From sequence record MH719082.1: a stretch of DNA of 64,000 bases; one strand, 5' to 3'. The DNA is from Escherichia phage vB_EcoM_IME392. This document shows positions 932 to 34,927 of this stretch, piece by piece. The notes below the pieces were generated by a model. That model made no database searches. It was not told the DNA's origin and saw nothing but the letters and a program-made list of their open reading frames with translations. Numbering within the stretch: the first letter of the stretch is position 1; each line of letters starts with the position of its first letter. The translations under genes were made by a program, and so were the position numbers.

Positions 932-1650
932 TTAGAGTCCTTACGCACTGAATCAATAGACTTAACTGCAGAGGACAGTAACTCCAGACGGGCCTCCTGA
1001 GGGATCATACCAGATGGCTCATTCAGGATCATAATACCTTTACCAGTATTAGTAAAACGAGCTGTGATTGATCCAGGATACACCGGATGATTCAGAGTTA
1101 CAGAATTACACAACGCAGCACCGAATCGCTCCTCGTAGGCACGCATAGTTACCTTAAGGAGAGTAGAACTGACTGCTACAGAGTATTCCGGATCAACAAC
1201 ACGGAAGTTATTGTCCTCAATACTCTTATCCTTCGTATTGAAGAACAGAGTCATGTTATAATAATCAATAGACTCGTTACTGAGACGTAATGCCTCATCA
1301 CGAGCTTCCTGGCTAGCAAACATACTGTTATGCAGCAGGAAGTAAACGTACGAATCGAATACCGCACGATCACTGACGATCAACTCGCCACGATTGTAGG
1401 CATCCTTGAACATCTGAGTTCGCTGACGAATAAGACGCAGCTGGAACTCTACCGCTTCCATAGGATCTTCCACAGCTAAGCGCAGAATATCCATATGGGA
1501 TGTTACTCCCAGAGGAAGATGGTCACGAGTCTGTACTGCACGGAAGGTACATTCGGTTGATTCTTCCCAGCCTTTAGCCAGAGTAGATTTACCGGTACCC
1601 TGCGCACCAGACATAATTACACTGTAGCCTGGGATACTATAGTCTCTCAT
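928..1650 (-). CDS. P-loop kinase (dNMP kinase-like, or hydroxymethyl-pyrimidine DNA kinase-like)
   Basis: Walker A motif SGAQGTGKST near the N-terminus. Likely true start is the ATG at 1650 (MRDYSIPGYS...) preceded by GGAGAG; the ORF track extends to a TTG at 1662. Stop overlaps the start of the downstream TS-family gene. Confidence 0.5.
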   Translation of the reverse strand: MRDYSIPGYSVIMSGAQGTGKSTLAKGWEESTECTFRAVQTRDHLPLGVTSHMDILRLAVEDPMEAVEFQLRLIRQRTQMFKDAYNRGELIVSDRAVFDSYVYFLLHNSMFASQEARDEALRLSNESIDYYNMTLFFNTKDKSIEDNNFRVVDPEYSVAVSSTLLKVTMRAYEERFGAALCNSVTLNHPVYPGSITARFTNTGKGIMILNEPSGMIPQEARLELLSSAVKSIDSVRKDSK

Positions 1651-1682
1651 TATTCTCTCCAATTAAGAATCTTTCCCACATT

Positions 1683-1713
1683 TTAACAGCCTTTCAAGAC
1701 CCTAAAAGAGCGG
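1683..1713 (-). promoter_or_regulatory. Conserved bipartite intergenic motif, copy 1 (candidate promoter)
   Basis: Plus-strand TTAACAGCCTTTcaagaccctAAAAGAGCGG, about 33 nt upstream of the kinase start at 1650. On the minus strand it reads CCGCTCTTTT-N-AAAGGCTGTTAAAAT (TG-n-TAnnnT-like). Confidence 0.4.
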
Positions 1714-1739
1714 ACTAAAAAGGCTGGTGTAAATGTGAA

Positions 1740-2711
1740 CTAGCTAAACTTATACCAGCGAGGTCTCATACGGATCTCGTGATTCAGTTTATGTAGTTTC
1801 GAGAATTCGCAGAATGAGTTGGTGAACATCTGACGAGTATAGAACCGCTCATCCTCCGGCATGAAGTGGAACCATTTCTCCGGCTCCCATGCATACCCGA
1901 AATGAGCACATATCTCTTTGATGTTCTGATACCACCATTCCACGAACATCTGGTAGCCGCAAGGAGGGTTCTGGTCATTAAGCATGTACCATACCCCATC
2001 CTGCGTCCCGGGTCCACATACGATAGCATCGTTATCTGTGTACGCAGTCTCTTTAGAGTAGGACATAGTTGCCCAGCATTGATATGCCATGAACGGACCT
2101 AATCCAGATACCTGTAACAGATGCTCGATGGCCTCGGTAGCGAACGGAGACTTCCATGCCAGTAAGATAGGATCACTGTAGGTCTTCACCAGATAGGCTC
2201 TGGCAGCTACACTGTACTTAATATCCTCTGGACATACTTCATTAGCCATCTTAACTGCTGTGCTAAGGAAGTAGGCATTTGATTGCTGTGGAGCAGTGAA
2301 CGGAGGACCATCCTCATAACGACGTAGCTCTTCACGACCCATGTTATGTATGTCGTCATAGCTCATCTCATAAAGAGGAAGGACTCTGCGGAAGCGATCC
2401 ATATATGAATCACCACGGTTTATCATCTGGAAGAGTACCACGTTAAGCGCCTTACTCTCCCAGCTTAGGGAATCGTTCTCCAGAATGTTCTTGATAGCCC
2501 ATACTGTTTCACGATCGTGCTTACGGAACACGTTAGTGAATTTAAACTTACTAATCCACTTATGTTCTGTCCACGGAGGAGGTAGCTTAAGTATCTCCTT
2601 CTTATAATAAACCTCAGTCCGCTCGCGGTTATACTCCACATACTCACGTAGCTCCTCGGGATTTATCATCCCGAGTAACCCGTCGAAGTGCAAACCTAAC
2701 GGTTTAGACAT
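1740..2711 (-). CDS. Hypothetical protein, Trp/Cys-rich, in the putative DNA-modification module
   Basis: 323-aa ORF with canonical ATG (2711-2709) overlapping the stop of the upstream gene (TAATG). No motif I can name with confidence. Confidence 0.5.
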   Translation of the reverse strand: MSKPLGLHFDGLLGMINPEELREYVEYNRERTEVYYKKEILKLPPPWTEHKWISKFKFTNVFRKHDRETVWAIKNILENDSLSWESKALNVVLFQMINRGDSYMDRFRRVLPLYEMSYDDIHNMGREELRRYEDGPPFTAPQQSNAYFLSTAVKMANEVCPEDIKYSVAARAYLVKTYSDPILLAWKSPFATEAIEHLLQVSGLGPFMAYQCWATMSYSKETAYTDNDAIVCGPGTQDGVWYMLNDQNPPCGYQMFVEWWYQNIKEICAHFGYAWEPEKWFHFMPEDERFYTRQMFTNSFCEFSKLHKLNHEIRMRPRWYKFS

Positions 2712-3790
2712 TAAAGAATACCTTCTTTGGTAAAGTAGTCTATTACTTCATCCTGAAGTTCTTGTGCGTAATCCTTGCGCAGATATAGATTCTCATACTG
2801 ATGTTTCAGCAGAGCATCACGATCTTTCAGTTTCTCTGCAATCTCCGCATTACTGGAGACGATCAGAGGAGCCAGTAGCTCTTCGGGGACGCCGCTCCGG
2901 ATTATTGTTCCAGCAGCATCTTTATCCACCAGCATCAGAGTACCAGAGCTCAGGTATTCGTAATAACGGTTAGGTGGGCTGGTATAGAACGAATTACTGG
3001 AGTTCCAGTCTTCGATAAGCAGTACCGCTGCATATTTAGCCACTTCATCCAGCATCTCTGACAGCTTAAACTTAGGCAGCCAGTTAATCGGAGCAGCAGG
3101 TCCCAGCCACTTACGTTCTTTAGGATCCAGCTCTTCCCAGTTTTCCTGCTCGTAGCCGTCAAATCCTGCAAGACCACCAGTATGTTTAGCGATGGACATC
3201 TGAGCTTTGTAGCTCGGCACCGACATAAACAGTTCCAGACCATCTTGCTGGGAGAAGTACTGAGTGAACTTATGGAAGCGGCCTTCACGAGCAGCACCGT
3301 AATACAGCAGGCTATTGTCCGGCTTATCTGACGATCCATAGCGAGGCTTACGACCAGGAACGTAGGTAAGACGGTTCCAGTTAATGTGATGATAGTTCTC
3401 TTCGCTAGGAGAATACTGATTACCCCAGGAAGTACGTTCAAATGCTGCTACAACTTTAAATACAGTAGCTGCGGTGATGTGTCTCCACTGCGGACCCTGG
3501 ATACGCATCTTAGACGAGTAATCCTGTCCAATCCAGTAGAACTTAGCTCCGACATCTGCCTGGTCTACCCAGAACTTATACATCTCGTCGCGGAACTTAC
3601 AGAAGGTAGGAACACCATTGATGGCGATAATCACGTCATATTTAGTGCCATCTTCCATAGCCTTAACGAACTTAGGAGTATCGTCCAACAGGTCAGCTTG
3701 AAGTCCGTAGGCTAACCAGGAAGCCAGAGTATTACTGGCAATGATGGATTTATCGCTGCATGGCGAAAAGTTAGTTACTGCAATCTTCAT
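2711..3790 (-). CDS. Glycosyltransferase resembling phage DNA beta-glucosyltransferase (T4 BGT-like, GT-B fold)
   Basis: 359 aa. N-terminus MKIAVTNFS..., YDVIIAINGVPTF, LLYYGAAREGR and AAVLLIEDWNSSNSF...TLMLVD line up with my recollection of T4 beta-glucosyltransferase (MKIAIINMG..., IYGGSFRSGQR, IAALIIGDKNYNDNF...AVMLID). GGAGAAA RBS before ATG 3790. Confidence 0.5.
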   Translation of the reverse strand: MKIAVTNFSPCSDKSIIASNTLASWLAYGLQADLLDDTPKFVKAMEDGTKYDVIIAINGVPTFCKFRDEMYKFWVDQADVGAKFYWIGQDYSSKMRIQGPQWRHITAATVFKVVAAFERTSWGNQYSPSEENYHHINWNRLTYVPGRKPRYGSSDKPDNSLLYYGAAREGRFHKFTQYFSQQDGLELFMSVPSYKAQMSIAKHTGGLAGFDGYEQENWEELDPKERKWLGPAAPINWLPKFKLSEMLDEVAKYAAVLLIEDWNSSNSFYTSPPNRYYEYLSSGTLMLVDKDAAGTIIRSGVPEELLAPLIVSSNAEIAEKLKDRDALLKHQYENLYLRKDYAQELQDEVIDYFTKEGIL

Positions 3791-3817
3791 GTTTAATTTC
3801 TCCGTAGGCTGTCACAA

Positions 3818-3850
3818 TTTAACAGCCTTTTAGCTCATCAAAGAAGCGAG
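3818..3850 (-). promoter_or_regulatory. Conserved bipartite intergenic motif, copy 2
   Basis: TTTAACAGCCTTTTagctcatcAAAGAAGCGAG, about 30 nt upstream of ATG 3790; the stop codon of gene 3838..4872 lies inside the spacer. Confidence 0.4.
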
Positions 3851-4872
3851 TTAGCTGATGCCCAGCTCAGCCAGTTATCGTTGAGATCGGTCAGGTAGGA
3901 GTAATCCTTATTCAGACCGAATACAGTACGGTTAGTTCCGTCGAACTTCATTATACCAGCGCCAGGAGCTCTGATGATTGCATCTTCCGTAGCCAGACAA
4001 TATTCTTTCAAGTATTCCTGGATGTTGGGACGAATACGACGGAAGGAACTATCTGCCGAGTCATAGTGGAACATATCTGCGCAGTGCCACTGTACGTAGG
4101 ATTTATCCGGACGGCTGAGTAGTTCATTACGGGTAACCATATCTTTAGGAGAATATCCCAGCTTAGCTACAGTGACTTCGTGAATACCTCCACCATTAGA
4201 CGAAGTATCCATCAGCCAGTTTTCGTCCCAGTAGAACGAAGTACCAGTACCAGTTACCTGTCCAACCTTCCAGCCCATCGCCATACCTTTAAACAACAGG
4301 TAGCAATCTTCTCCTACGGTCAACTGTTGGAAGGTTATATCGAACAGCCAGAACATCTTCTCACTGGTCTTGACCATGATACCGAGGTCAGTGGCCGGAG
4401 CAGTGTTATTATGTGACTGACGATCGCATAGTTCAACAATCTTGTAGTTACGATTCTTGAAGCTACGGACGAACGCCATCTCAAACTCAGATCCCTCGAA
4501 GTCTATAACGGAACGGTCCAGATGGAAAATATTATCTGCGAACCAGACATCATCATCCACGAAGTAGCAGATGTCTGGACACCAGTTCTGATCCTCCATT
4601 AAAATCCATGCCTTATCAAGAGCATGAGCTCGGATTCTTCCGATTACCGGATTATCGTACTTAGGACGATGCCAGAAATTAAACTGCTCGTCCCCACCGA
4701 ACTGCTCTTCCAGAACTGCCTTATCTTCTTCGGAGGCATCCTGCATAAAGTAGAAGAAACGATACTCGATAGAGTCGTCAGTCTTCTTAGCATCTTTGAA
4801 CGACTGAATCTGACGGAGTACCGACTTCATACGATGATAGGTTGGGATGATAAAAGCCACTTTGGTAGTCAT
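3838..4872 (-). CDS. GT-A-type glycosyltransferase (family-2-like, DxD motif)
   Basis: 344 aa. N-terminal VAFIIPTYHR (cf. GT2 IIPTYNR) and DxD-like YFVDDDVWF. Confidence 0.5.
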   Translation of the reverse strand: MTTKVAFIIPTYHRMKSVLRQIQSFKDAKKTDDSIEYRFFYFMQDASEEDKAVLEEQFGGDEQFNFWHRPKYDNPVIGRIRAHALDKAWILMEDQNWCPDICYFVDDDVWFADNIFHLDRSVIDFEGSEFEMAFVRSFKNRNYKIVELCDRQSHNNTAPATDLGIMVKTSEKMFWLFDITFQQLTVGEDCYLLFKGMAMGWKVGQVTGTGTSFYWDENWLMDTSSNGGGIHEVTVAKLGYSPKDMVTRNELLSRPDKSYVQWHCADMFHYDSADSSFRRIRPNIQEYLKEYCLATEDAIIRAPGAGIMKFDGTNRTVFGLNKDYSYLTDLNDNWLSWASANSLL

Positions 4873-4878
4873 ATTTAT

Positions 4879-5490
4879 TTATCCAATTTGACGAACTAAG
4901 CGAAACCCTTCGGCGTACGGCCACTGGGCAGAATATCCACGTAAGGTGGCTAGAGCTAAGATACTCTGGGTATCTCGGTCTGACTTAATCTGGGAGTCGA
5001 ATCGTCCCATAGCCTGGCACTTACACTCAATATCGTCCTTATTCAGACGCTCGAAGTAATTAGGTTCCATCTGACCGAACTGGGTCAGGGACTCGGCATA
5101 CTCATATTCCAGGATAAGCCAGTTATACGCTCGGAGAGCTACACGAGCAGCATGATTAACTAGTTGATGGTCCTGGTGTAGGCTACTGAACGGAATATAG
5201 ACTACATCCGGCCTGATTTTAGCAACATAGTCCGCAATATCCTTAGCCAATTGCGGAATATCCTTCTGAGTCATACCATCGCCTGTGGAGGCATCGTTAC
5301 GCTCCAGGCAATGTACTTCTTTGATATTCGGATAGACACCGAATGCTGCTTCGGCTTCACCACGACGGGTCTCGTCCGGAGCAGTTACTTCGAGGATGAA
5401 AAATTGGTCGTCGCGGAATTTGCTCATAATACCTCCGCAACCCAGAATCTCATCATCGTGATGTGGGCTGATAATCAATCGTGACTTCAT
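4879..5490 (-). CDS. PIG-L/LmbE-family zinc-dependent de-N-acetylase
   Basis: 203 aa. Signature LIISPHHDDEILGCGG (PIG-L HPDDE motif) and downstream HQDHQ. GAGGA RBS before ATG 5490. Confidence 0.7.
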   Translation of the reverse strand: MKSRLIISPHHDDEILGCGGIMSKFRDDQFFILEVTAPDETRRGEAEAAFGVYPNIKEVHCLERNDASTGDGMTQKDIPQLAKDIADYVAKIRPDVVYIPFSSLHQDHQLVNHAARVALRAYNWLILEYEYAESLTQFGQMEPNYFERLNKDDIECKCQAMGRFDSQIKSDRDTQSILALATLRGYSAQWPYAEGFRLVRQIG

Positions 5491-5505
5491 TATTAATCCT
5501 CGCTA

Positions 5506-5541
5506 CACAAAAATGGGGTTAGGCCGTAGAGACCTAACCCC
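5506..5541 (-). terminator. Rho-independent terminator-like hairpin between the BCCT and deacetylase genes
   Basis: Plus strand caaaaat-GGGGTTAGG-ccgtagaga-CCTAACCCC: 9-bp perfect stem, followed on the minus strand by a TTTTT run. Confidence 0.45.
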
Positions 5542-5555
5542 GTACGCCTCTGACA

Positions 5556-5590
5556 CCTTAACAGCCTTTTAGGTCATCAAACAGGAGGAG
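5556..5590 (-). promoter_or_regulatory. Conserved bipartite intergenic motif, copy 3 (degenerate downstream block, overlaps the BCCT stop codon)
   Basis: CCTTAACAGCCTTTTaggtcatcAAACAGGAGGAG; the second block lies in the last codons of the BCCT gene. Confidence 0.3.
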
Positions 5591-6959
5591 TTTCCTTAGC
5601 CAAGAATACTTTAGGTACAAAGATCTTGAGGAACCCGAATAGAATACACAATACCCCAATCAGTACCGGAACAGCCGATACAGCTACCAGAGTCTTCGTT
5701 ACAGTTACTACGTCACCACCTGCCCAGTTAAGTGCAGCAGCAACTACACCCATGCTTACAATCCAGAATACACGAGTTCTAGGAGCGGTCATGGACTCTA
5801 CCGTAATACCTGCTGAGTCATGACCTGTAATAAAGAACAGAATCACAGACACGAGGGTAATTACTGAGAATATCCATCCGCCTGGGAAATTAGCCAGAAG
5901 CTGGAAGATATCCTGAGCACCATGTTGCAAACCGGCTACACCGAATACGGTAAACCATACGTTACTGATAATGGTAGGGAACAGTACACATCCCAGGATC
6001 AGTTCGCGAATAGTACGGCCGTAAGAGATACGTGCCACAAACGCTCCGACGAATAATGCCCAACCTACCCAGGCTGCATAGTAAGCATAAGGCCAGCTAG
6101 CCAGCCATTGCTTCTCTTCAGCAGTACTGCCAATGTTTACCGACATAGGAATAATCTGGAGCAGATAGCTGCCAGAATAGGTGATGGTCTTCCAGAGGTA
6201 TTCAAAGAATGTACCACTTACAGCAACGAATGCCATAATAGATAGAGCTACGATTACATTATATCTGGATAACCACTTAACCCCACGATCGACACCAGTT
6301 ACGGCACTAAGTACAGTGCCCAGAGTCAGGAGTGCGATAATGGTGTAAGGACCAACATCCACACCAAGGAACTCTTTAAATCCAGAACTGATCGGGCCTA
6401 CTGCGTAGACGAACGACAGGGTTAAGCCTATGATGGTCGAGAAGAGTAAGCTTATCGTATTAAGGTTATTCAGAGTTCGGGACTTGAATAACTGATTAAG
6501 CGGACGGTCTTCACCACGTACATGCAGTAAGTACCCGAATGCCACCCCTACGACTGCATACACAGCCCATGCATTAAGTCCCCAGTCAAAGAAGGTAGTT
6601 ACCATATTCTGACGTTCGGACATACCCTCCTGATGATGGTACATAGGTTCGAGTACGCCATAATAAATCATGGATACACCCATACCGGTACTAAACATCA
6701 TAGAGTAATAGGTAAAGCGATTGTATTTCGGAGTACCTTTACCCAGCTTAATGTTACCATGTTTGCTGAATACAAAGAATGCCAGGAACGCCAGGAAGAT
6801 CAGCGAAGACCAGGTAAATATGAATCCATACTGAGATATAAATACAGACTTACTCCAGTCCATTACAGCACCAAACTGGGTGGGAGCAAACATAATGGCG
6901 AGTACAATACCCACCGTTACCAGCACCGTCCCCCAGGTAACTACCTTTGAATCGGACAT
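5577..6959 (-). CDS. BCCT-family (betaine/carnitine/choline-type) secondary transporter, polytopic membrane protein
   Basis: 460 aa, about 12 hydrophobic segments. Carries the BCCT signature region WPYAYYAAWVGWALFVGAFVARISYGRTIRELILGCVLFPTIISNVWFTVFGVAG (cf. BetP/CaiT W-x-FYWAWW-x-W-x-PF-x-G-x-F-x-ARIS-x-GRTIRE) and FSTGMGVSMIYYGVLEP. GAGGAA RBS before ATG 6959. Confidence 0.8.
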   Translation of the reverse strand: MSDSKVVTWGTVLVTVGIVLAIMFAPTQFGAVMDWSKSVFISQYGFIFTWSSLIFLAFLAFFVFSKHGNIKLGKGTPKYNRFTYYSMMFSTGMGVSMIYYGVLEPMYHHQEGMSERQNMVTTFFDWGLNAWAVYAVVGVAFGYLLHVRGEDRPLNQLFKSRTLNNLNTISLLFSTIIGLTLSFVYAVGPISSGFKEFLGVDVGPYTIIALLTLGTVLSAVTGVDRGVKWLSRYNVIVALSIMAFVAVSGTFFEYLWKTITYSGSYLLQIIPMSVNIGSTAEEKQWLASWPYAYYAAWVGWALFVGAFVARISYGRTIRELILGCVLFPTIISNVWFTVFGVAGLQHGAQDIFQLLANFPGGWIFSVITLVSVILFFITGHDSAGITVESMTAPRTRVFWIVSMGVVAAALNWAGGDVVTVTKTLVAVSAVPVLIGVLCILFGFLKIFVPKVFLAKETPPV

Positions 6960-8817: not shown

Positions 8818-10065
8818 TTACAGTTTACCGATCATCTTCTGAATCATCTCGTCAGAAGTCTGATTCTCTACCTTAGCACGACGTTCTTGCAGATTAGCAA
8901 TGCGGTCGTCGTGATCTTTCTTACGTAGCATGCTGATGCTACGGCTAAGGCAGGAATTCAACACTTCCTGGGTAATACCGAGAGCTTTGATGATCTGAGC
9001 ATCAGACTTATCCTGCATAACCAGCTCGCCCACTTTAGGAAGAATCTGGTAAATCTCGATGTCTCGGTCAATCTTCTTAAGAGACTCAGTCTTATGGACG
9101 GAGAATGCCTGATTGTAGAGAGCCATCGTGACTGCAATCCAGTCGCGAATACCCATCGTCACCAGTTGACCATTGTAGGCTACCTGGATACGATGCGAGC
9201 GGTTCATGTAAGCAATATTCATGCATGCTTCGTGAACCTCGTCCATATCGATGGTCCTGATACGGGGAGCCTTCATTACTCGGATATAGATCTTATCCTT
9301 GGACATGTTCTTGACCAGGATCTTACCTTCTGATAACCACTTATTCAGGAACCCGATGCGAGGAGTAATTACCTCACCAGACCCGATGATGTCGATGGTG
9401 TCGGTATTGACGCGAGTTACCTTAAGGGTAAGGCCTAAGCGACCTACACCAGTTTCCCATAAGGACTTAAGGTCTGACTTACTCGGCACGATATCATACC
9501 CGTACTGAGCCTTAAGCAGATTATAATCGTCATGCTTGTAGGCTTCCAGCAGACTCTCGTAAGTGAATGCTGGGATACGGGACTGAATACCAGTAGCCCA
9601 TGAGAAGGTACCATACATCAGAGCATACGGAATAGGCACTGGAAGGTATGCGTATTCCATCTTCTCTTCACCTTCAACCTGCGGAACATAGTCCGCTAGA
9701 CCGAAGTAGTATTCTGCACGATCTTCGTTCAGGCCAACCTTCGTGTAACGAGGAGCAGCACCAGGAACTTCTTCCAGCAACTTAACGCCGAAAGATCCCT
9801 GACCATCAATAGCACCGATGCGAGCAAGACGGGAAATAGTCCCATCGATAGACTGGTCACCGAATGGGTGTAGCGACTGAGTTTCTGAGATAGCGCTCAG
9901 AGTCCCCACCAGCTTCCCACGAGCAATGCTATTCAGAGCCATGTAGATACGGCGCTGGGCAGGAATCAGGCCATCGATACCGGGAACTACACGATGAAGA
10001 GCACAATACACACTGTAGTCAGTGTAGTTCTTGGTGATGAATTCAGAAATCTTTACCTGTTCCAT
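8818..10065 (-). CDS. DNA topoisomerase II medium subunit (GyrA-like cleavage domain; T4 gp52-like)
   Basis: 415 aa. VVPGIDGLIPAQRRIYMAL resembles the GyrA/ParC DGLKPVQRR-ILY motif. Adjacent to and co-oriented with the ATPase/Toprim subunit. AAGGAG RBS. Confidence 0.75.
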   Translation of the reverse strand: MEQVKISEFITKNYTDYSVYCALHRVVPGIDGLIPAQRRIYMALNSIARGKLVGTLSAISETQSLHPFGDQSIDGTISRLARIGAIDGQGSFGVKLLEEVPGAAPRYTKVGLNEDRAEYYFGLADYVPQVEGEEKMEYAYLPVPIPYALMYGTFSWATGIQSRIPAFTYESLLEAYKHDDYNLLKAQYGYDIVPSKSDLKSLWETGVGRLGLTLKVTRVNTDTIDIIGSGEVITPRIGFLNKWLSEGKILVKNMSKDKIYIRVMKAPRIRTIDMDEVHEACMNIAYMNRSHRIQVAYNGQLVTMGIRDWIAVTMALYNQAFSVHKTESLKKIDRDIEIYQILPKVGELVMQDKSDAQIIKALGITQEVLNSCLSRSISMLRKKDHDDRIANLQERRAKVENQTSDEMIQKMIGKL

Positions 10066-10067
10066 AA

Positions 10068-12053
10068 TTACTCCTTAAACAGACCGTAGTCTTCTAACAG
10101 TTGGCGACGAGCACGAGATGAGTACAGCAACTTACGAGCGGCATCGAGATGCTCTTCATTATCATCGTAGGTTACCTGGATAAGACGGCGAGATTTCGAG
10201 TTAATGATGAATTGCTCAGTTTCTTCTTCGGTATATGACCCGAGTCCCTTACGACGTTCAACATAGCACTTATCGAAGTCGATCTTATCCTTCTCGTCAG
10301 CGTAGTAGAACTCGGTCTTCTTACCATTCTTAACTACATAGAACGGAGCTTCGAGTTTATACAGACGACCATCTTTAACCAGCTCTGGAGCATGGATAAG
10401 GAAGATTGAGCTAATGAGGTTACTGATGTGCTGACCATCAACATCAAGGTCGGTCATAATGATGATCTTACCGTAACGAGCCTTATCTATGTCAAACATC
10501 TGGCCCATACCACACCCGATAGTATTGATGATCGCCAGCAGCTCTGGGTTATTCACGAATTCCATGATATCCATGGAAGCCGAGTTACGCATCTTACCGC
10601 GAAGAGGAAGCACCGACTGATACTCATTACGCAACTTGATGATATTACCAGAAGCAGACGGACCCTCTGTGATGAACAGCTCACGAAGATCCCAGCGGTC
10701 GGACGGAGATTCGTAGATCTTCGCCATGTCACCATCCATAGCGGCCTTACGGTGATCATCACCCATCACCAGCTTAGACTTAATGAAGTCCATGTTGGAG
10801 AGTTTATTCAGGCTAGCTTTGTAAGCCAGGATCTTGGCAATCAGAGCATCAAAGAATTGCTTATTCTTCTCGTATACCAGGCTGAAGTAGAATGTGAGCT
10901 GACTCAGGCATTCTTTCTCGTAGAAGAAGTACTCGCCATAATAGTCGTAATCGTTGATTTGCTCATCATTCAGCATCAACTTATTCTTAGCCATGATTTC
11001 CCAGTCGCTCCAGGACATACCGAGGCCAGTTAACTTCTCCTTAGTCTGCGAGGAGAATGCTGTACGATAGCTGGAGAAGACGTTAGTGAACACGATCAAT
11101 CCCAGCTTAGCATCACCAACAGTGATAGCAGAGTTAACTTTATTCAGCATACCGCCGAGCGCTCTCGTGACCAGCTTCTCATGCAGACCACCATGCGGGT
11201 TATTGATCAAGTTGATCATGTCTACATGGGAGTAGGACATATTCTTATCAGAGTAGCCCAACTCACCAGAGAAGGTCAGACGATCGTTGAACGAGAACTC
11301 GTACTTGACTGTAGTATCGAGGAACAGCTTCTCATTCTCTGCAACATCACGACGAAAATCCCAGGTAGCCAGAGCTTCACCATTAACGGTGATAGTTGCA
11401 TCACGACCAATCAGGGAGATCTTCAGAGGAACAGTATCCACATCAGACCAGATGCTGCGGTACAGAGTCGCATCAGGCACCATGAAGACTGCTGTGGAGA
11501 AGTCGGTAGCCTTTAACGTCTCGAGCACTTCGTCTGGGAAGCCATCGTCGTGAAGATCATTCAGATCATTGATCACTCCATCGATTTCCATAACACCACG
11601 GCGGAATCCGAGGACATAGAACTGACCTGGCTCCATAGGGATGTGTGCCTTATCTCCCTGCATTACGCGACGGATTACAACGAATCGCTCGGACACTGCG
11701 TTAACAGCGGAGCTACCTACGCCATGGGTACCAGAGGTAATTTCACGGTTATCGCCCAGCTTAGAGCCAGCATGCAGATCTGTTACAGTAGAGAACAGAA
11801 TAGATTTAGACGGATCTTCCGGATCAGCGTAGATAGGAATACCACGTCCGTTATCGGTAACCAACTTGTAGGCTTCACGGTTAATGATCTGCACTAGGTT
11901 AGCATAACCATTAAGCAGCTCGTCCTCCGCATTATTGATTATTTCCTGGAGAGGATGAGTGTAGTTAATCGGGTCACCGAGATACATGGATACGTTCTGA
12001 CGAACGTTATCAGGGTAACGCAATCTTGTGATTTCAATAGCATGTTCTGACAT
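10068..12053 (-). CDS. DNA topoisomerase II large subunit (GyrB-like ATPase plus Toprim; T4 gp39/gp60-like, single polypeptide)
   Basis: 661 aa. GHKL ATPase motif TDNGRGIP; Toprim motifs ITEGPSASGN (cf. EGDSAGG) and IIIMTDLDVDGQHI (cf. IMTDADVDGSHI). GGAGAAA RBS before ATG 12053. Confidence 0.85.
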   Translation of the reverse strand: MSEHAIEITRLRYPDNVRQNVSMYLGDPINYTHPLQEIINNAEDELLNGYANLVQIINREAYKLVTDNGRGIPIYADPEDPSKSILFSTVTDLHAGSKLGDNREITSGTHGVGSSAVNAVSERFVVIRRVMQGDKAHIPMEPGQFYVLGFRRGVMEIDGVINDLNDLHDDGFPDEVLETLKATDFSTAVFMVPDATLYRSIWSDVDTVPLKISLIGRDATITVNGEALATWDFRRDVAENEKLFLDTTVKYEFSFNDRLTFSGELGYSDKNMSYSHVDMINLINNPHGGLHEKLVTRALGGMLNKVNSAITVGDAKLGLIVFTNVFSSYRTAFSSQTKEKLTGLGMSWSDWEIMAKNKLMLNDEQINDYDYYGEYFFYEKECLSQLTFYFSLVYEKNKQFFDALIAKILAYKASLNKLSNMDFIKSKLVMGDDHRKAAMDGDMAKIYESPSDRWDLRELFITEGPSASGNIIKLRNEYQSVLPLRGKMRNSASMDIMEFVNNPELLAIINTIGCGMGQMFDIDKARYGKIIIMTDLDVDGQHISNLISSIFLIHAPELVKDGRLYKLEAPFYVVKNGKKTEFYYADEKDKIDFDKCYVERRKGLGSYTEEETEQFIINSKSRRLIQVTYDDNEEHLDAARKLLYSSRARRQLLEDYGLFKE

Positions 12054-13343: not shown

Positions 13344-13369
13344 CACAAAAATGGGGTCCGAAGACCCCA
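13344..13369 (-). terminator. Rho-independent terminator after the Mre11-Rad50 fusion gene
   Basis: TGGGGTC-cgaa-GACCCCA hairpin directly after the stop at 13374, followed on the minus strand by TTTTTGTG. Confidence 0.55.
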
Positions 13370-13373
13370 TCAA

Positions 13374-16139
13374 CTACTCTTCCATAAACGTAGTTACGTT
13401 ATTGGAAAGGTAGGCACCAATTTTAGTGTTATATCTCTGGAAGGTAGGAACATGGGTAACCAGGATGATGTGGTTAACCGGAATGTCCTGAAGAGCATCA
13501 ATAGCTACGTCCAGAGTATTTACGTCCAGATTTCGCAGAGACTCATCCAGAATCAGACATCCTGCTCCCTTACTGAGGCTAATCAGCTTACCGATGAACA
13601 GTACGTCCACCAGGTTCTGTTGGCCACCAGACAGATCAGCATACGGAATTAACAGATCTCCAACTTTGTATTGAACATCGAAGTCAATCTTGATAGCTCC
13701 GTTAGCCTGTTCACGAACAGTAGAAATTACCATATCTCCACCAGTCATCATAGCAGCTACTTCTTTGAAGATAGAAGCAGTTACATCGCCGCTATTAGTG
13801 AACAGGCTCTGATACTCAACCAGTTTCTGATACTTAGGCTGGAGAATAGCCAACTGCGCATTAGCATCGTCGAGTTTCTTCTGAGCCTCGTCCATACGAG
13901 TCTTCAGACTACGAAGAGTAGCCATAGCGCCGATGGTAGAGTTGATCTCGATTAGCTCCTGCTCCAGCTTAGCCACTTCCTCTTCGAGAACCTGCACGGA
14001 AGGATAGGACTTAGTCTTACTCTTAAGCACTTCCACGTCGCTATTAACGGTATGGATCTTCTGACGAAGAGTAGCCACATCGTTCAGCAGACCGGACTTA
14101 CGTCTTAGTTCGGCTAATTCACTATTCTTAACGTTAAGCTTCTCTCTGAGTTCATCAGACTTAGGAGCCTTACTGATCTCAGCCTCGACAGCATCCAGCT
14201 TAGTAACAGATGCAGATCCTTGGGTTTCGAGATCATCCATCTTAGCTCTGATAGACTTCTCTACTTCTTTAATGTCCTCTTCCTTAAGGGACTGCTTACA
14301 GGTTGGGCACGTAGTAGGGATGTTGCGCATCTCGGTCTCGAGCTTAGTTAACTCCTTCTCTAAGCGAGTTAACTCATTAGTCAGAGATTCACTCTGATTA
14401 TGCAGTGACCGGATGTTACCTTCTACTTCAGATACCTCGGCATCCAGAGTAGTGATTTCGTCCCGGACCTTAGCGAGAGCGGAGTTAACCTCCTCTTCGT
14501 TAAAGTCAATCTTGAACGCAGCCAGAGAATCTTCCAGCATCTGGAGACTCTGTAGCTTACTGTCCAGATTACCCAGCTCACGGATCTTCTGACGAATATC
14601 ATCAATCTGTGGCAGGATTCGAGACTTATCTTCTTCCAGATTACTCACGTCCTTAAGTTTGGAGAAGTCGTGATCCTCCATGGTCTTAAGGACTTCTTCC
14701 TGAGCAGTTACCTGGGTCTGATAGTTACTGATCTCTACCTTACAGTTCTTAGCCGAGGCCTTTGCGACAGCTTCGTACTGGTTAATTACGGTAAGACCGA
14801 GCATCTTCGTGATCAGGTTAATACGTTCGTTGAATCCGAACTGGCTCAAGAACGGAGGACTATTCTGGGAACGATACAGAAGATCGAAGTGTTCGAGGAA
14901 TGGCAACATCTCCCAGAGCTTAGCTTCACGCTCTCGGATACTACCACCATCCATCTCATCACCATCAATCCAGACTCGGAAAGTCTGACCACCAGCCCAA
15001 TGGCGACTGATCAGGAATTCACGACCACCATACTCTAGCATCACTTCTACCAGAAGATGGTCTTGACCGCGTCTCACCACGTTACGAGGACTGTCGCTAC
15101 CAGTTAAGCAGTAGTTAAGAGCTCTCAGCAACGAGGATTTACCGTTACCAGTTTCGCCGTAGAGATAAGTAAGACCTCGCTTAAAGTTAAGCTCCAGCTT
15201 ATCAATACTGCGGAAGTTCTCTACCTTAATACTATTCAAGGTAAAGTTAAGGTCGAAGACCGACTCGGAACGATCAACGTGGGTAGACATCTCATCATGG
15301 ATATCTTTAAGACCCTTTGCCCGAACGACTTTGTCGATTACTTCTTCAACATCGATAGATTTAACTGAGATGCGTGAAGCATCCATCATCTGAGCTCTTT
15401 CACGAACTACCAGATGAGGGTAATTATCCATACCGGCAGGTACTTCATCTTCCCAGTACATCTTGAGGTATTTGTAGGAGTCAGACTCTACCGGAACCCG
15501 CTGCCAGGAAAGATCTTTAAGATCCAGCAGCACCAAGCTACCGTCCTGACAGTCACCCATCCCGTGAGGAATAGGTACGTTAACCGAGTGGGTATGACCG
15601 ATGCTGATAGGACGATGGATGTCACCAGCAAATCCCAGCTCATACTTAGTATCGTCGAACTCCTGACCAAACATAGAGGACAGAGTAATGTGGCCAATAA
15701 GGACATCTACTTTATCTTCGATAAAACTGAAGTCCTGGGTAGGACGCCAGTCGCTAAAGGCGACCTTACGGCCACCTAAGTTCAGGATTTTACCATCGAC
15801 ATATTCTGCCTTACCAGCGAGGATCGGCACCAGTGAGTTCTGGTAGTGATCAGCATCTACTGATTTGGAGTTAATGTCGTGGTTACCCAGAATATAATAA
15901 ATCTCGGTAAACTGCTCACCGAGGATCTCCATAAACTGGGATGTAGCGTGTGCAATTTTAGGCTCATGCTGAGCCTTATGCACTAAGTCGCCAGCGATAG
16001 ACAGACAGGTTACTTTATGTTCCCTGCCCATCTCCGCCATACGATGAGCTAAACCGATAAACTGCTTTAAGCGAAACCCTTCCGAGTTATGCTGCTGAAA
16101 TTCATGGATATGAATATCAGCTACGATCAACATTTTCAT
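13374..16139 (-). CDS. Fused Mre11/SbcD-like nuclease and Rad50/SbcC-like ATPase (T4 gp47 plus gp46 equivalents in one polypeptide)
   Basis: 921 aa, one continuous ORF. N-terminal calcineurin-like phosphoesterase motifs (IVADIHIH, AGDLVHK, GNHD, GHTH); then Walker A YGETGNGKSS, long coiled-coil with a CPTC zinc-hook-like CxxC in the middle, ABC signature LSGGQQ, Walker B CLILDE and H-loop VTH at the C-terminus. Confidence 0.8.
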   Translation of the reverse strand: MKMLIVADIHIHEFQQHNSEGFRLKQFIGLAHRMAEMGREHKVTCLSIAGDLVHKAQHEPKIAHATSQFMEILGEQFTEIYYILGNHDINSKSVDADHYQNSLVPILAGKAEYVDGKILNLGGRKVAFSDWRPTQDFSFIEDKVDVLIGHITLSSMFGQEFDDTKYELGFAGDIHRPISIGHTHSVNVPIPHGMGDCQDGSLVLLDLKDLSWQRVPVESDSYKYLKMYWEDEVPAGMDNYPHLVVRERAQMMDASRISVKSIDVEEVIDKVVRAKGLKDIHDEMSTHVDRSESVFDLNFTLNSIKVENFRSIDKLELNFKRGLTYLYGETGNGKSSLLRALNYCLTGSDSPRNVVRRGQDHLLVEVMLEYGGREFLISRHWAGGQTFRVWIDGDEMDGGSIREREAKLWEMLPFLEHFDLLYRSQNSPPFLSQFGFNERINLITKMLGLTVINQYEAVAKASAKNCKVEISNYQTQVTAQEEVLKTMEDHDFSKLKDVSNLEEDKSRILPQIDDIRQKIRELGNLDSKLQSLQMLEDSLAAFKIDFNEEEVNSALAKVRDEITTLDAEVSEVEGNIRSLHNQSESLTNELTRLEKELTKLETEMRNIPTTCPTCKQSLKEEDIKEVEKSIRAKMDDLETQGSASVTKLDAVEAEISKAPKSDELREKLNVKNSELAELRRKSGLLNDVATLRQKIHTVNSDVEVLKSKTKSYPSVQVLEEEVAKLEQELIEINSTIGAMATLRSLKTRMDEAQKKLDDANAQLAILQPKYQKLVEYQSLFTNSGDVTASIFKEVAAMMTGGDMVISTVREQANGAIKIDFDVQYKVGDLLIPYADLSGGQQNLVDVLFIGKLISLSKGAGCLILDESLRNLDVNTLDVAIDALQDIPVNHIILVTHVPTFQRYNTKIGAYLSNNVTTFMEE

Positions 16140-16993
16140 GCCGACTCCAGTATCTTAGCCGTAACGGATCTGTTATATTTACCCAGTACACCATGGAAGT
16201 ACGGAGGGAATCTGAATCCTGGACAGAACTCTTCCAGAGTAGGTAGGATGCGCTGTTGCATCTGTACCTTAGACTCCTGTTCTTTAATGATGCTGTGGAC
16301 TTCTGTATCGGTTAGGATTCTGTCTAGACGCATCAGTTCCATATTAGAACGAATACGGAATTCAACCGATTGGCTTAAGCTACCATCTTTGTAGGCATTA
16401 ATCGCCTCCTTAACAGTGCTTAATCCAGTAGCCACTCCTGGAATGTTGTCGGAGCCGTCCCCGACGATGGCTTTGTAGATGAGATAATCCTTATGATCGT
16501 CCAGATCGTAGGTCTTCATTAACCAAGGAAGATCCACTAAACCATCGTCAGGATTTAAGACACAAGTATTCTCATTAATTGATAAGTACCAGTCACGGTC
16601 ACGAGAATGCAACATAACCGGACGTCCTGAATGAGCATAGTAGTAGCCTAAATCATCGGCTTCCACACCAGACACCTGGATACACTTAATACCCAATGCT
16701 GGGAAGATCTGCTCATGAAGTACATTCATAGCAGCCCACAATGCCTCAAAGCTCTCGTCATACTCACGATTAGCTTTATACTCCGGATTCTTATCTTTAG
16801 GCCTGTATCTCCACTTGCCTCGATCATATAGCATGATTAGCTCGGAGTTATATCCGTCTTCCTTAATCAACTTCGCTACACTACCAATAGTGGAGGAGAC
16901 CGTAGGACCTAAGTCCTGGGACTTACCGGCTGCGAACCAGTTACGAAGAGTCAGCCACTGACAATCGACTGGTATTAACGGGATGTCATTCAT
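16136..16993 (-). CDS. RNase H / 5'-3' flap endonuclease (FEN-family, T4 RNase H-like)
   Basis: 285 aa. Acidic-cluster motif GVEADDLGYYYA (cf. the EADD motif of 5' nucleases). ATGA start/stop overlap with the upstream gene. Confidence 0.55.
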   Translation of the reverse strand: MNDIPLIPVDCQWLTLRNWFAAGKSQDLGPTVSSTIGSVAKLIKEDGYNSELIMLYDRGKWRYRPKDKNPEYKANREYDESFEALWAAMNVLHEQIFPALGIKCIQVSGVEADDLGYYYAHSGRPVMLHSRDRDWYLSINENTCVLNPDDGLVDLPWLMKTYDLDDHKDYLIYKAIVGDGSDNIPGVATGLSTVKEAINAYKDGSLSQSVEFRIRSNMELMRLDRILTDTEVHSIIKEQESKVQMQQRILPTLEEFCPGFRFPPYFHGVLGKYNRSVTAKILESA

Positions 16994-17045: not shown

Positions 17046-18056
17046 TTAATTTTTACGGAACTTGGCGAAACGGGAAGCTGCACCACCTTCTTCCTGACCT
17101 TCGTCAGACTTATCTTCGCCGGCATCTTCGACTTTATCTTCAGACTTCTCTTCGGACTTAGTTTCAGATTTATCTTCACCAGCTTCGTCAGACTTAGCCT
17201 GATCTTCGGTAGGCTCGGACTTAGCGTCAGACTTAGTATCTTCAACTTTATCGTCTGATTTAGCTTCTTCAGCCTTAGCCTCTTCCTCAGCTTTGAGCTC
17301 TTCGAAGCCATCTTCACCAACTAACGGCAGACCCTTAGCCTTACGCTGGGAGCGAATTTCGTCCAGATCTTTACGGACACGCTTAACCAGACCTACGTAC
17401 TTATCTTTATCGAAACCTTCACGAATATAAGCCTGAGACAGAGGCTGGTAAGTCTGATCCACAACTACCGGATCAGCTTTGCTGAACAGCGGAGTGAAAG
17501 TTACAGATCCCTGGTTACCACGTACCACGGTAATTTTAACCGGAGATCCTTTGACGTCTTTATCCAGCATACCTTCCAGAACTTCTGGAGAGTCTTCCGC
17601 CAGCGCCGTAATGAAGTCGGTCAGTGCGTTAGCCACTTTACCGTTACCGATCACCGCATACAGAGTATTCGGCTTCCAGTTATCAGACGGAGTGTCGGTT
17701 TTCTGCAGGAAGAAGTAGAACAGGATGTTGTACTTCAGACCGTATTTCCAGTGATTGTACTCATTCAGCTCTTCGAGCATGTCATCCAGCTCGGCATAGT
17801 TGAAGTTCTCAGGAAGATCTTCACAGTCAGACGGAGTCTGAATACCATAACTGAAGTAACCGTGAGTACGGACTTCGCGATACAGGTTACCGACAGGGTC
17901 AGTGATGATACGACCCTGATGGCTACCTTCTGGTAAGAACGTAGCATTTGGGAAGTTACCGGTACCGCCGGACTTCTCTTTACGTTCTTTCATTTTACCT
18001 GCGAGGGCTTTGATACCGGCTACGTCTAACTTCTTAACTTGAGTTTGTTCAGTCAT
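17046..18056 (-). CDS. Putative ssDNA-binding protein (gp32-like), with acidic low-complexity C-terminal region
   Basis: 336 aa. Sits in the replication/recombination block; the C-terminal third is a K/E/D-rich repeat (EEEAKAEEAKSDDKVEDTKSD...). Weak resemblance to T4 gp32 around FLPEG; no zinc site seen, so the call is tentative. Confidence 0.4.
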   Translation of the reverse strand: MTEQTQVKKLDVAGIKALAGKMKERKEKSGGTGNFPNATFLPEGSHQGRIITDPVGNLYREVRTHGYFSYGIQTPSDCEDLPENFNYAELDDMLEELNEYNHWKYGLKYNILFYFFLQKTDTPSDNWKPNTLYAVIGNGKVANALTDFITALAEDSPEVLEGMLDKDVKGSPVKITVVRGNQGSVTFTPLFSKADPVVVDQTYQPLSQAYIREGFDKDKYVGLVKRVRKDLDEIRSQRKAKGLPLVGEDGFEELKAEEEAKAEEAKSDDKVEDTKSDAKSEPTEDQAKSDEAGEDKSETKSEEKSEDKVEDAGEDKSDEGQEEGGAASRFAKFRKN

Positions 18057-33490: not shown

Positions 33491-34927
33491 ATGGAAGTCG
33501 TAGACTCAGTCAATGCTGTTGACTTAGTTGAGGTATCCGAGGCAGTCCAATTCGACGTAGTTGAAAACGCATCCGAAGTTGATGGAAAATACGTCCTAGC
33601 GAAAGCTGTAGGTCCTGCGTTCTTTCCTGGTCAAACCTCTGGTAATAAAGTTTATTACCCCGAGGCGCTCTGGGAAAAAGTGCTGGCCGATGGGGACGTT
33701 AATTCCCGGCTGCAAAACCGTACCATGTTTGGTACGATTGGTCACGACATTGAGGATATCAATGACGAGGTCATCCGTCGAGGCGAACTGTCTCATATCG
33801 TAACTAAACTTTTTGTAGATGATGCTGGTGTAGGTCGAGCTGAGTATCTGGTGGTCAATACCCCGACTGGTCAGATTCTCAACACGCTACTCCGAGCAGG
33901 CTCTAAGCTGCGGGTGTCTACAAAGGCTAAGGGAGCGTTGTCCCATCCAGATGAGAATGGGGTCAAAACTCTCAGAAGCTACTATCTTAAAAGGATAGAC
34001 TTCGTACTTACCCCAGGATTCGAGCAGGCACTGCCCGAAGTAGCAGAGTCTCTGAACAAAATCCGTAACCAACTACCAGATCCCGTCGAGGAGAGTAAAA
34101 TGGAACAGAACGAATTCATTGAGCACCTTAAGACTGAGAACGCTCAGCTGAAGGCTCAGGTTGATGAATCCAAGCAGGCCAATACGGTCCTGAAAACTCA
34201 GCTGGATGAAGCGAAGACCCAACTGGCTACCGCTACCGCCCAGCTGGCTGAAGTTAACGAGTCCCTGGCTAAATACCAGACTCTGGGTACCTTCGAGCAG
34301 GTAGACGAAGCACTGACTAAAGGTGCGGAAACTATCACCACTCTGAAAGAGTCTCTGAACGAGGCTATCGAAGAGTCTGCTCACGACGTCCACGATCTGG
34401 AAGTCGTAGAAGAAGCTCTGGAGAAATACAAAGAGCTGGGTACTCCTGAAGAGATCTCCGAAGCTATCGCCACCCTGAATGGCTTGATCGAAGAGAAAGA
34501 GACCCAGGTCTGCGAATCTCTGGCCAAGAAATTCAAACGCAGCCCGAGCATGATTAAAACCATGCAGACTGCGCTGGGTGGCCTGGATAAAGTCGAAGAA
34601 GCTCTGGTAGCTGAAGCTGCCGAACTGGGCATCAAAATCGACGAATCCGACGATGGCGAAGATAAAGGCGACGGTAAAGACGATAAGGGTGATGACAAAT
34701 CCGACAAGAAAGATGGTGGGGATGACAAAGGCGACGATGCCGATGAATCCAAGAAAACTCCGTCTAAAGTCGAAGAGTCCCTGAATCGTGTAAATCGCCT
34801 GGGATCTCTGATGTCTACCAAACAGATCCGCACCAATCTGATTAATACCCAGAAAGTTGACGAGTCTGCTGGTAAAACTGCCGACGCGCCTCAATCTCGT
34901 GCCGGTAAACTGATGTCTCGTCGATAA
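33491..34927 (+). CDS. Prohead scaffold protein with N-terminal protease-like domain (putative protease-scaffold fusion)
   Basis: 478 aa. N-terminal globular part of about 190 aa, then a long heptad-rich coiled-coil (LKAQVDESKQANTVLKTQLDEAKTQLATATAQLAEV) and an acidic/lysine-rich tail (DGEDKGDGKDDKGDDKSDKKDGGDDKGDD); directly upstream of the major capsid gene. Confidence 0.5.
   Translation: MEVVDSVNAVDLVEVSEAVQFDVVENASEVDGKYVLAKAVGPAFFPGQTSGNKVYYPEALWEKVLADGDVNSRLQNRTMFGTIGHDIEDINDEVIRRGELSHIVTKLFVDDAGVGRAEYLVVNTPTGQILNTLLRAGSKLRVSTKAKGALSHPDENGVKTLRSYYLKRIDFVLTPGFEQALPEVAESLNKIRNQLPDPVEESKMEQNEFIEHLKTENAQLKAQVDESKQANTVLKTQLDEAKTQLATATAQLAEVNESLAKYQTLGTFEQVDEALTKGAETITTLKESLNEAIEESAHDVHDLEVVEEALEKYKELGTPEEISEAIATLNGLIEEKETQVCESLAKKFKRSPSMIKTMQTALGGLDKVEEALVAEAAELGIKIDESDDGEDKGDGKDDKGDDKSDKKDGGDDKGDDADESKKTPSKVEESLNRVNRLGSLMSTKQIRTNLINTQKVDESAGKTADAPQSRAGKLMSRR

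Follow-up and report, generated by a model that had tools for sequence, protein, structure and literature searches.

Mimivirus R555 was described as a fusion of Mre11 and Rad50 (Yoshida, Claverie and Ogata, Virol J 2011; PMC3175470), and the same study reported twelve further fusions, including those of Bacillus phage 0305phi8-36, of Clostridium kluyveri and Deferribacter plasmids, and of several eukaryotes. Many metagenomic fusion homologues were inferred to derive from phages (PMC3175470). In R555 the third Asp of motif II is replaced by His (GDxxH) and His206 by Asp, and a linker of 9–12 residues was argued to be enough to connect the C-terminus of Mre11 to the N-terminus of Rad50. The fusions were non-monophyletic in the 2011 tree (PMC3175470). 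Here we describe a protein of this kind from Escherichia phage vB_EcoM_IME392 (sequence record MH719082.1), of which a stretch of 64,000 nucleotides was analyzed (the window, to which positions refer unless another record is named). A single uninterrupted open reading frame (ORF) of 921 codons, recognized in an initial annotation of the window and borne out here, runs on the minus strand from an ATG at 16139 to 13374 (13374..16139, with the stop codon at 13374–13376), and it encodes a real, intact Mre11-Rad50 fusion. The core of that annotation, an Mre11/SbcD nuclease covalently joined to a Rad50/SbcC ATPase, was upheld, with the catalytic residues in place. We regard the product, with a probability of about 0.85, as a genuine single-chain Mre11-Rad50 (SbcD-SbcC) enzyme, the phage counterpart of T4 gp47 plus gp46.

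Fusions of this kind are already known, and the novelty implied at first did not stand: viral and phage examples were published in 2011 (PMC3175470), and the IME392 protein was already in GenBank and UniProt. The branch formed by the IME392-type family has gone undescribed and its annotation is inconsistent, and literature searches on the EP_H11/IME392 family or on natural fusions turned up only the 2011 fusion paper. As in the fusions reported there, a single polypeptide comprises an Mre11-like phosphoesterase and, C-terminal to it, a complete Rad50-like ATPase, and the virus carries the fused version only. The IME392 protein has GDxxH (here GDLVH) and an Asp for the His206-equivalent in common with R555 as described in PMC3175470, and among viral structure models it aligned by fold over its whole length with “DNA repair exonuclease” fusions encoded by Mimiviridae relatives and Tenacibaculum phages, at 13–14% identity. 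At 921 amino acids (aa) it is shorter than the giant-virus fusions, which reach ∼1200–1400 aa, and it is complete, whereas the Bacillus phage fusion is without the capping/helix-loop-helix region and one ATPase segment (PMC3175470). Because the 2011 fusions are non-monophyletic, a common origin of the IME392 fusion with R555 is not established.

The closest characterized sequence relatives found were T4 gp47 and gp46, at ∼18% identity. T4 and IME392 have in common the nuclease-then-ATPase order, a short phage-type coiled coil, a CPTC hook and a replication/recombination neighborhood. The T4 proteins are two polypeptides from genes 47 and 46, with the small ORFs 46.2 and 46.1 between them, whereas IME392 has a single ORF; moreover, gp47 carries GHFH where IME392 has GDIH, and the last ∼40 residues of gp47 had no aligned counterpart. 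The initial annotation was correct that T4 and E. coli encode nuclease and ATPase as two genes. Its proposed check, alignment to both systems, succeeded with T4, for which gp47 covered the whole N-terminal domain and gp46 aligned through the hook, but E. coli SbcD aligned only over motifs I–III. The same restriction held for archaeal and eukaryotic Mre11-Rad50, which, like SbcCD, consist of separate subunits. E. coli SbcC has 1048 aa compared with 624 residues in the Rad50-like part of the IME392 protein, and presumably has longer coiled coils.

Residues 1–247 (15399..16139, minus strand) comprise an Mre11/SbcD-type metallophosphoesterase core and a short capping-like beta region, and Pfam placed Metallophos at residues 1–185 (E 1.7e-9). 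Searched against the PDB with a 15-sequence profile of residues 1–298, the N-terminal domain matched solely Mre11/SbcD-type nucleases (Mre11 of P. furiosus at 1.6e-5, E. coli SbcD at 2e-4), the aligned part in these cellular proteins being motifs I–III. In the fold search, Mre11/SbcD matches outranked every other metallophosphoesterase. Comparison with T4 gp47 by hhalign aligned 272 columns with a probability of 95.8%, extending over gp47 residues 1–298, and paired H150 with the histidine of gp47 “GHW” and GDIH (172–175) with gp47 “GHFH”.

The phosphoesterase motifs DIHIH (8–12), GDLVH (50–54) and GNHD (85–88) lie where they had been proposed, but the fourth one named in the initial annotation, GHTH (181–184; 15588..15599, minus strand), is unconserved and non-catalytic. 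The true motif V/VI is GDIH (172–175; 15615..15626, minus strand), in which Asp173 stands for His206 of P. furiosus Mre11 (PfMre11). This correction follows from the gp47 comparison and from a conservation alignment of 92 full-length family members with 21–77% identity to the query: H182 and H184 of GHTH were kept in only 4 and 19 members, whereas in GDIH the Gly and the His were present in all 92 and D173 in 89. The reference di-metal ligands of PfMre11 are D8, H10, D49, N84, H85, H173, H206 and H208, for which D8, H10, D51, N86, H87, H150, D173 and H175 are the candidate equivalents here. Seven of the eight are identical in kind, the His206-equivalent being an Asp. D8, H10, G50, D51, H87, H150, G172 and H175 were invariant among the 92 members, and these include six of the eight metal/catalytic positions. 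At position 86 (15882–15884) the motif III Asn of GNHD is retained in the IME392 protein, while 49 of the 92 members have Gln (GQHD), an unusual substitution of a motif III metal ligand for the metallophosphoesterase superfamily.

The second half is a complete Rad50-type ATPase on the same strand. The N-terminal ATPase lobe (residues 298–450; 14790..15248) bears Walker A (GETGNGKSS, G328–S336) and a candidate Q-loop (YRSQ, 422–425), and is followed by an ascending coiled-coil arm (451–605; 14325..14789), a zinc hook (606–619; 14283..14324) with CPTC at residues 611–614 (14298–14309), a descending arm (620–779; 13803..14282) and the C-terminal ATPase lobe (780–921; 13377..13802). The latter contains the signature LSGGQQ (836–841), Walker B (LILDE, 862–866), the D-loop (D872) and VTHV (894–897) with the H-loop histidine H896. 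The Walker A, CPTC hook, LSGGQQ, Walker B and H-loop had all been located correctly. In Pfam, AAA_23/SMC_N matched from residue 300, and Rad50_zn_hook matched residues 609–639 (E 4.8e-4) with 20.3 bits, under the Pfam cut-off of 24.3 bits. PHROG 77 (“SbcC-like”) matched residues 294–915 (E 1.3e-49), and profile comparison aligned residues 298–907 to residues 3–548 of the 560-aa T4 gp46 with a probability of 99.4%, the CPTC hook falling on the CPTC of gp46. The best PDB matches of the C-terminal part were Rad50 chains, both by sequence and by fold. In the conservation alignment, G331, G333, K334, S837, G839, D865 and E866 were present in 92/92, D872 in 75 and H896 in 86, with the hook cysteines C611 and C614 found in 92 and 91 members, respectively.

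A structure prediction had been suggested as a further check, and the full-length AlphaFold2 (AF2) model had a predicted local distance difference test (pLDDT) score of 89. The N-lobe spans residues 300–450, the helices 451–605 and 620–779 flank a hook loop at 606–619, and the C-lobe spans 785–920, so that each arm of the coiled coil has ∼155 residues. At the junction of the two halves (all on the minus strand), residues 248–262 (15354..15398) form a low-confidence, probably flexible linker with pLDDT ∼51, falling below 50 at 250–253. Residues 263–286 (15282..15353) contain two short helices in the AF2 secondary structure, 264–274 and 278–285. By its position in the model, this helix pair (264–285) looks like a candidate equivalent of the helix-loop-helix domain by which Mre11 binds Rad50. 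A connector of ∼11 residues (287–297; 15249..15281) then leads from the helix pair to the first Rad50 strand, a length in agreement with the 9–12-residue linker predicted to be sufficient (PMC3175470). Conservation among homologues was continuous across the junction (DLNF.L..I..NFRSI).

Some observations count against a genuine Mre11-Rad50 enzyme. Two metal-site positions depart from canonical Mre11 (the Asp for the His206-equivalent in 89/92 members and the motif III Gln in 49/92), the capping region is short, and no NCBIfam model for Rad50, SbcC or Mre11 reached its curated cut-off, the best Rad50 score being 70 bits compared with 700. Scores so far under the cut-off indicate a distant viral branch rather than an equivalog of cellular Rad50/SbcC. 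The Asp-for-His change in motif V, the Asn/Gln variation in motif III, the shortened capping domain and the restriction of sequence alignment with cellular Mre11/SbcD to motifs I–III could also reflect a degenerate or re-purposed phosphoesterase, e.g., a phosphatase or a structural module, in which case the protein would be a Rad50/SMC-like DNA tether or an ATPase that lacks the nuclease activity of Mre11. We consider this improbable. The initial annotation had named a lack of the catalytic His/Asp residues as the outcome that would speak against it, and the alignment instead showed ligand-competent residues at all eight metal/catalytic positions, six of which are invariant in 92 sequences at ∼22–40% identity, which implies that the active site has been under strong purifying selection. 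Asp often serves as a metal ligand, and Mimivirus R555 carries the same replacement (PMC3175470), while the fold ranking above other metallophosphoesterases and the span of the gp47 alignment over the entire domain both favor an Mre11-type nuclease.

Even less probable is a conflict-system protein, either Lamassu LmuB-like or some other Rad50-like ATPase joined to a nuclease effector, acting for or against defence. PADLOC LmuB models did match residues 298–903 (E 1e-28), many defence ABC ATPases matched the Walker A region, and Rad50-like ATPases bearing a hook serve in defence systems, e.g., RloC (cited in PMC7824862). However, the SbcC-like PHROG scored 170 bits compared with 99 bits for LmuB, whose models matched the Rad50-like part alone, and the match to T4 gp46 ran end to end with the hook included. 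No LmuA-like partner was present, the neighbors are replication genes, and the gene is conserved across a lineage of lytic phages as the only Mre11-Rad50 (MR) homologue detected there.

Although EP_H11, the closest GenBank record, annotates the gene as a 695-aa fragment alone and two coding sequences (CDSs) occur at the corresponding locus in RHph_TM39 and YerA41, an artefact in which a frameshift was collapsed, or a stop lost, between adjacent Mre11-like and Rad50-like genes, the sequencing error considered in the initial annotation, is effectively excluded by independent assemblies containing the same 921-aa protein and by more than 200 full-length relatives. A 100%-identical sequence was recorded from a Logan assembly, and BFVD holds a 100%-identical 921-aa UniProt entry (A0A385IRC9). 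The 90%-identity cluster has seven members from NCBI, ENA and Logan, six of them of 921 aa and the seventh being the EP_H11 fragment; it includes GenBank AXY86089.1, a “hypothetical protein” of Escherichia phage vB_EcoM_IME392. A search of 1.8 billion cluster representatives returned at least 213 clusters at 50% identity with E ≤ 1e-30; among the top 150 of these homologues, nearly all were 880–1000 aa long and aligned end to end. The full-length fused architecture persisted down to ∼22% identity, and conservation straight across the junction likewise speaks against merged ORFs.

The question of one gene or two in relatives, raised at the outset, was answered by the same comparisons: the fusion is conserved family-wide, and only YerA41 separates off the C-terminal ATPase lobe. 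EP_H11 was the nearest record in the phage collection, at 96% nucleotide identity. It has a 695-aa “hypothetical protein” at 87–2174 and the N-terminal 239 residues at the opposite end of the record (110655–111371), the fragment being due to a linear record that opens within the gene. A feature annotated as “DNA polymerase I” is listed under the EP_H11 match to the N-terminus of the fusion. Single-CDS homologues were found in the cultured phages Acinetobacter Ab1-TPeters, Ralstonia RP13, Rhizobium RHph_TM61 and Thermus phiLo, and Vibrio phages 1.031.O and 150E35-1 each showed an end-to-end match under one annotated feature. In YerA41 (2905–5942), gp117 (827 aa) contains Mre11, the Rad50 N-lobe and the coiled coil, and gp118 (185 aa) the Rad50 C-lobe, with overlapping stop and start. 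This split may be real or may reflect a frameshift in a genome whose first assembly came from RNA-seq; in the near-identical vB_Yru_GN1 the alignment continued in one frame to residue 896.

Other candidates for separate subunits were rejected. An apparent natural split in RHph_TM39 (1174–5020) lies in a duplicated draft assembly with an N-run, where the CDSs “DNA repair exonuclease subunit 1” and “recombination endonuclease” open with the same residues (MAIAGDFLHVAS...), the second containing an X-run. Among the shorter homologues, P0155 (339 aa) continues into the Rad50 N-terminus and frameshifts 128 nt from the contig end, and P0030 (701 aa) is cut by the contig end. Within the IME392 gene, M283 was considered as an internal start for a separate Rad50 and rejected, being unconserved and without a convincing Shine-Dalgarno sequence. 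There were also longer homologues (P0017/P0202, P0054 and P0057) of 1089–1344 aa, which aligned in two or three stretches. P0017 has a precomputed match to the intein-splicing Pfam family PF14890, which suggests intein insertions in the fused gene of some phages.

The fusion lies in a block of replication and recombination genes on the minus strand. GGAG is found 6 nt upstream of its ATG, and the upstream gene (16136..16993) encodes a 5′-3′ exonuclease of the FEN/RNase H type, whose stop overlaps the fusion start as ATGA, so that translational coupling is likely. A terminator-like hairpin with a 9-bp stem and a T-rich tail (13350..13371, minus strand) begins 3 nt past the fusion stop. Further upstream are a helicase (21139–22779) and a DnaB-like helicase (19870–21129), the latter separated from the exonuclease by two unassigned ORFs; downstream, three small ORFs lie between the fusion and the large subunit of topoisomerase II (10068–12053), next to a second topoisomerase II subunit (8818–10065). 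The order of the block is syntenic with that of Acinetobacter phage Ab1-TPeters, in which the exonuclease-fusion pair also occurs. No second SbcC or SbcD was found by tblastn of the window with E. coli SbcC/SbcD, T4 gp46/gp47 and the fusion, a search of limited sensitivity for very distant homologues. A 73-residue match at 34190–34372 (E 2.3e-5) fell within the coiled-coil part of the fusion and was taken as coiled-coil similarity. In EP_H11 the fusion locus was the sole match.

Two other minus-strand genes of this arm deserve mention. A 336-aa ORF at 17046–18056 has a long acidic C-terminal tail rich in Lys, Glu, Asp and Ser and no Pfam or PHROG match; both this tail and the location of the ORF recall a phage single-stranded-DNA-binding protein. 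A full-length betaine/carnitine/choline transporter of the BCCT family (460 aa; PF02028, E 1e-92) is encoded at 5577–6959, which is an unusual auxiliary gene for a lytic myophage-like genome and lies within its early/replication arm.

By analogy with solved Mre11-Rad50/SbcCD complexes, two copies of the single-chain Mre11-Rad50 enzyme would form a homodimer equal to the canonical M2R2 heterotetramer. The Mre11-like domains would dimerize and the Rad50 heads would engage on ATP, while the coiled coils would be joined through Zn-bound CxxC hooks and the helix pair at 264–285 would presumably bind the coiled-coil base. Through ATP binding and hydrolysis, the enzyme would then control whether DNA ends or hairpins reach the di-metal nuclease site. 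During infection, its processing of DNA ends would initiate recombination-dependent replication and repair, alongside the action of the exonuclease, the helicases and topoisomerase II. With nuclease and ATPase fused, the 1:1 subunit ratio is automatic, and because sbcD-sbcC and 47-46 are already in nuclease-then-ATPase order, loss of a stop codon would probably have been enough to create the fusion. That the fusion alters regulation or targeting by host factors, as the initial annotation ventured, is speculation.

The distribution of the fusion in phages overlaps with that of a polymerase. Its N-terminal domain matched 24 of 50,697 phage records and the YerA41 polymerase matched 35, with 20 records common to both. 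The hosts are Escherichia, Acinetobacter, Ralstonia, Rhizobium, Vibrio, Cobetia, Yersinia, Thermus and Xanthomonas. This co-occurrence suggests that the fusion and the SP15/YerA41-type family-A DNA polymerase, itself fused to a uracil-DNA glycosylase (UDG), belong to an ancient shared replication module. Polymerase-sharing phages in which our searches returned no fusion-type match include SP-15, LIS04 and Maribacter Molly/Colly. Within the polymerase group, hypermodified thymidine is present in YerA41, Carin-5 and SP-15; it was predicted for RP13, EP_H11 and IME392. Thymidine-modification genes are present in the window: a 323-aa protein (1740–2711, minus strand) has the helical domain of 5-hydroxymethyldeoxyuridine (5-hmdU) DNA kinase (PF18723, E 3e-35), which marks pathways of thymidine hypermodification. 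According to a 2025 preprint, the 5-hmdU DNA kinase was undetectable in the RP13/EP_H11/IME392 group. The association of fusion and polymerase is most simply explained by shared ancestry, and a functional adaptation of the fusion to modified DNA is possible. More specifically, the fused, Asp-substituted enzyme could be a signature of the replication module in the deep SP15/YerA41-like polymerase lineage, adapted to processing DNA ends that carry the bulky hypermodified thymidines of these genomes or to evading host factors directed against two-subunit SbcCD/gp46-47, a proposal that we regard as rather doubtful.

The current understanding of MR complexes is unchanged by these results, and their practical value is modest. 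They provide the correct functional name for a protein that public records label as “hypothetical protein”, “SMC family ATPase”, “coil containing protein”, “SbcC-like” or “SbcD-like”. A compact single-chain MR of 921 residues, for which no co-expression is needed, could suit structural or single-molecule work as a minimal model. The tie to thymidine-hypermodifying phages is a testable lead on end-processing enzymes facing modified DNA, and the fused form, far from being a curiosity, constitutes a large conserved phage family.

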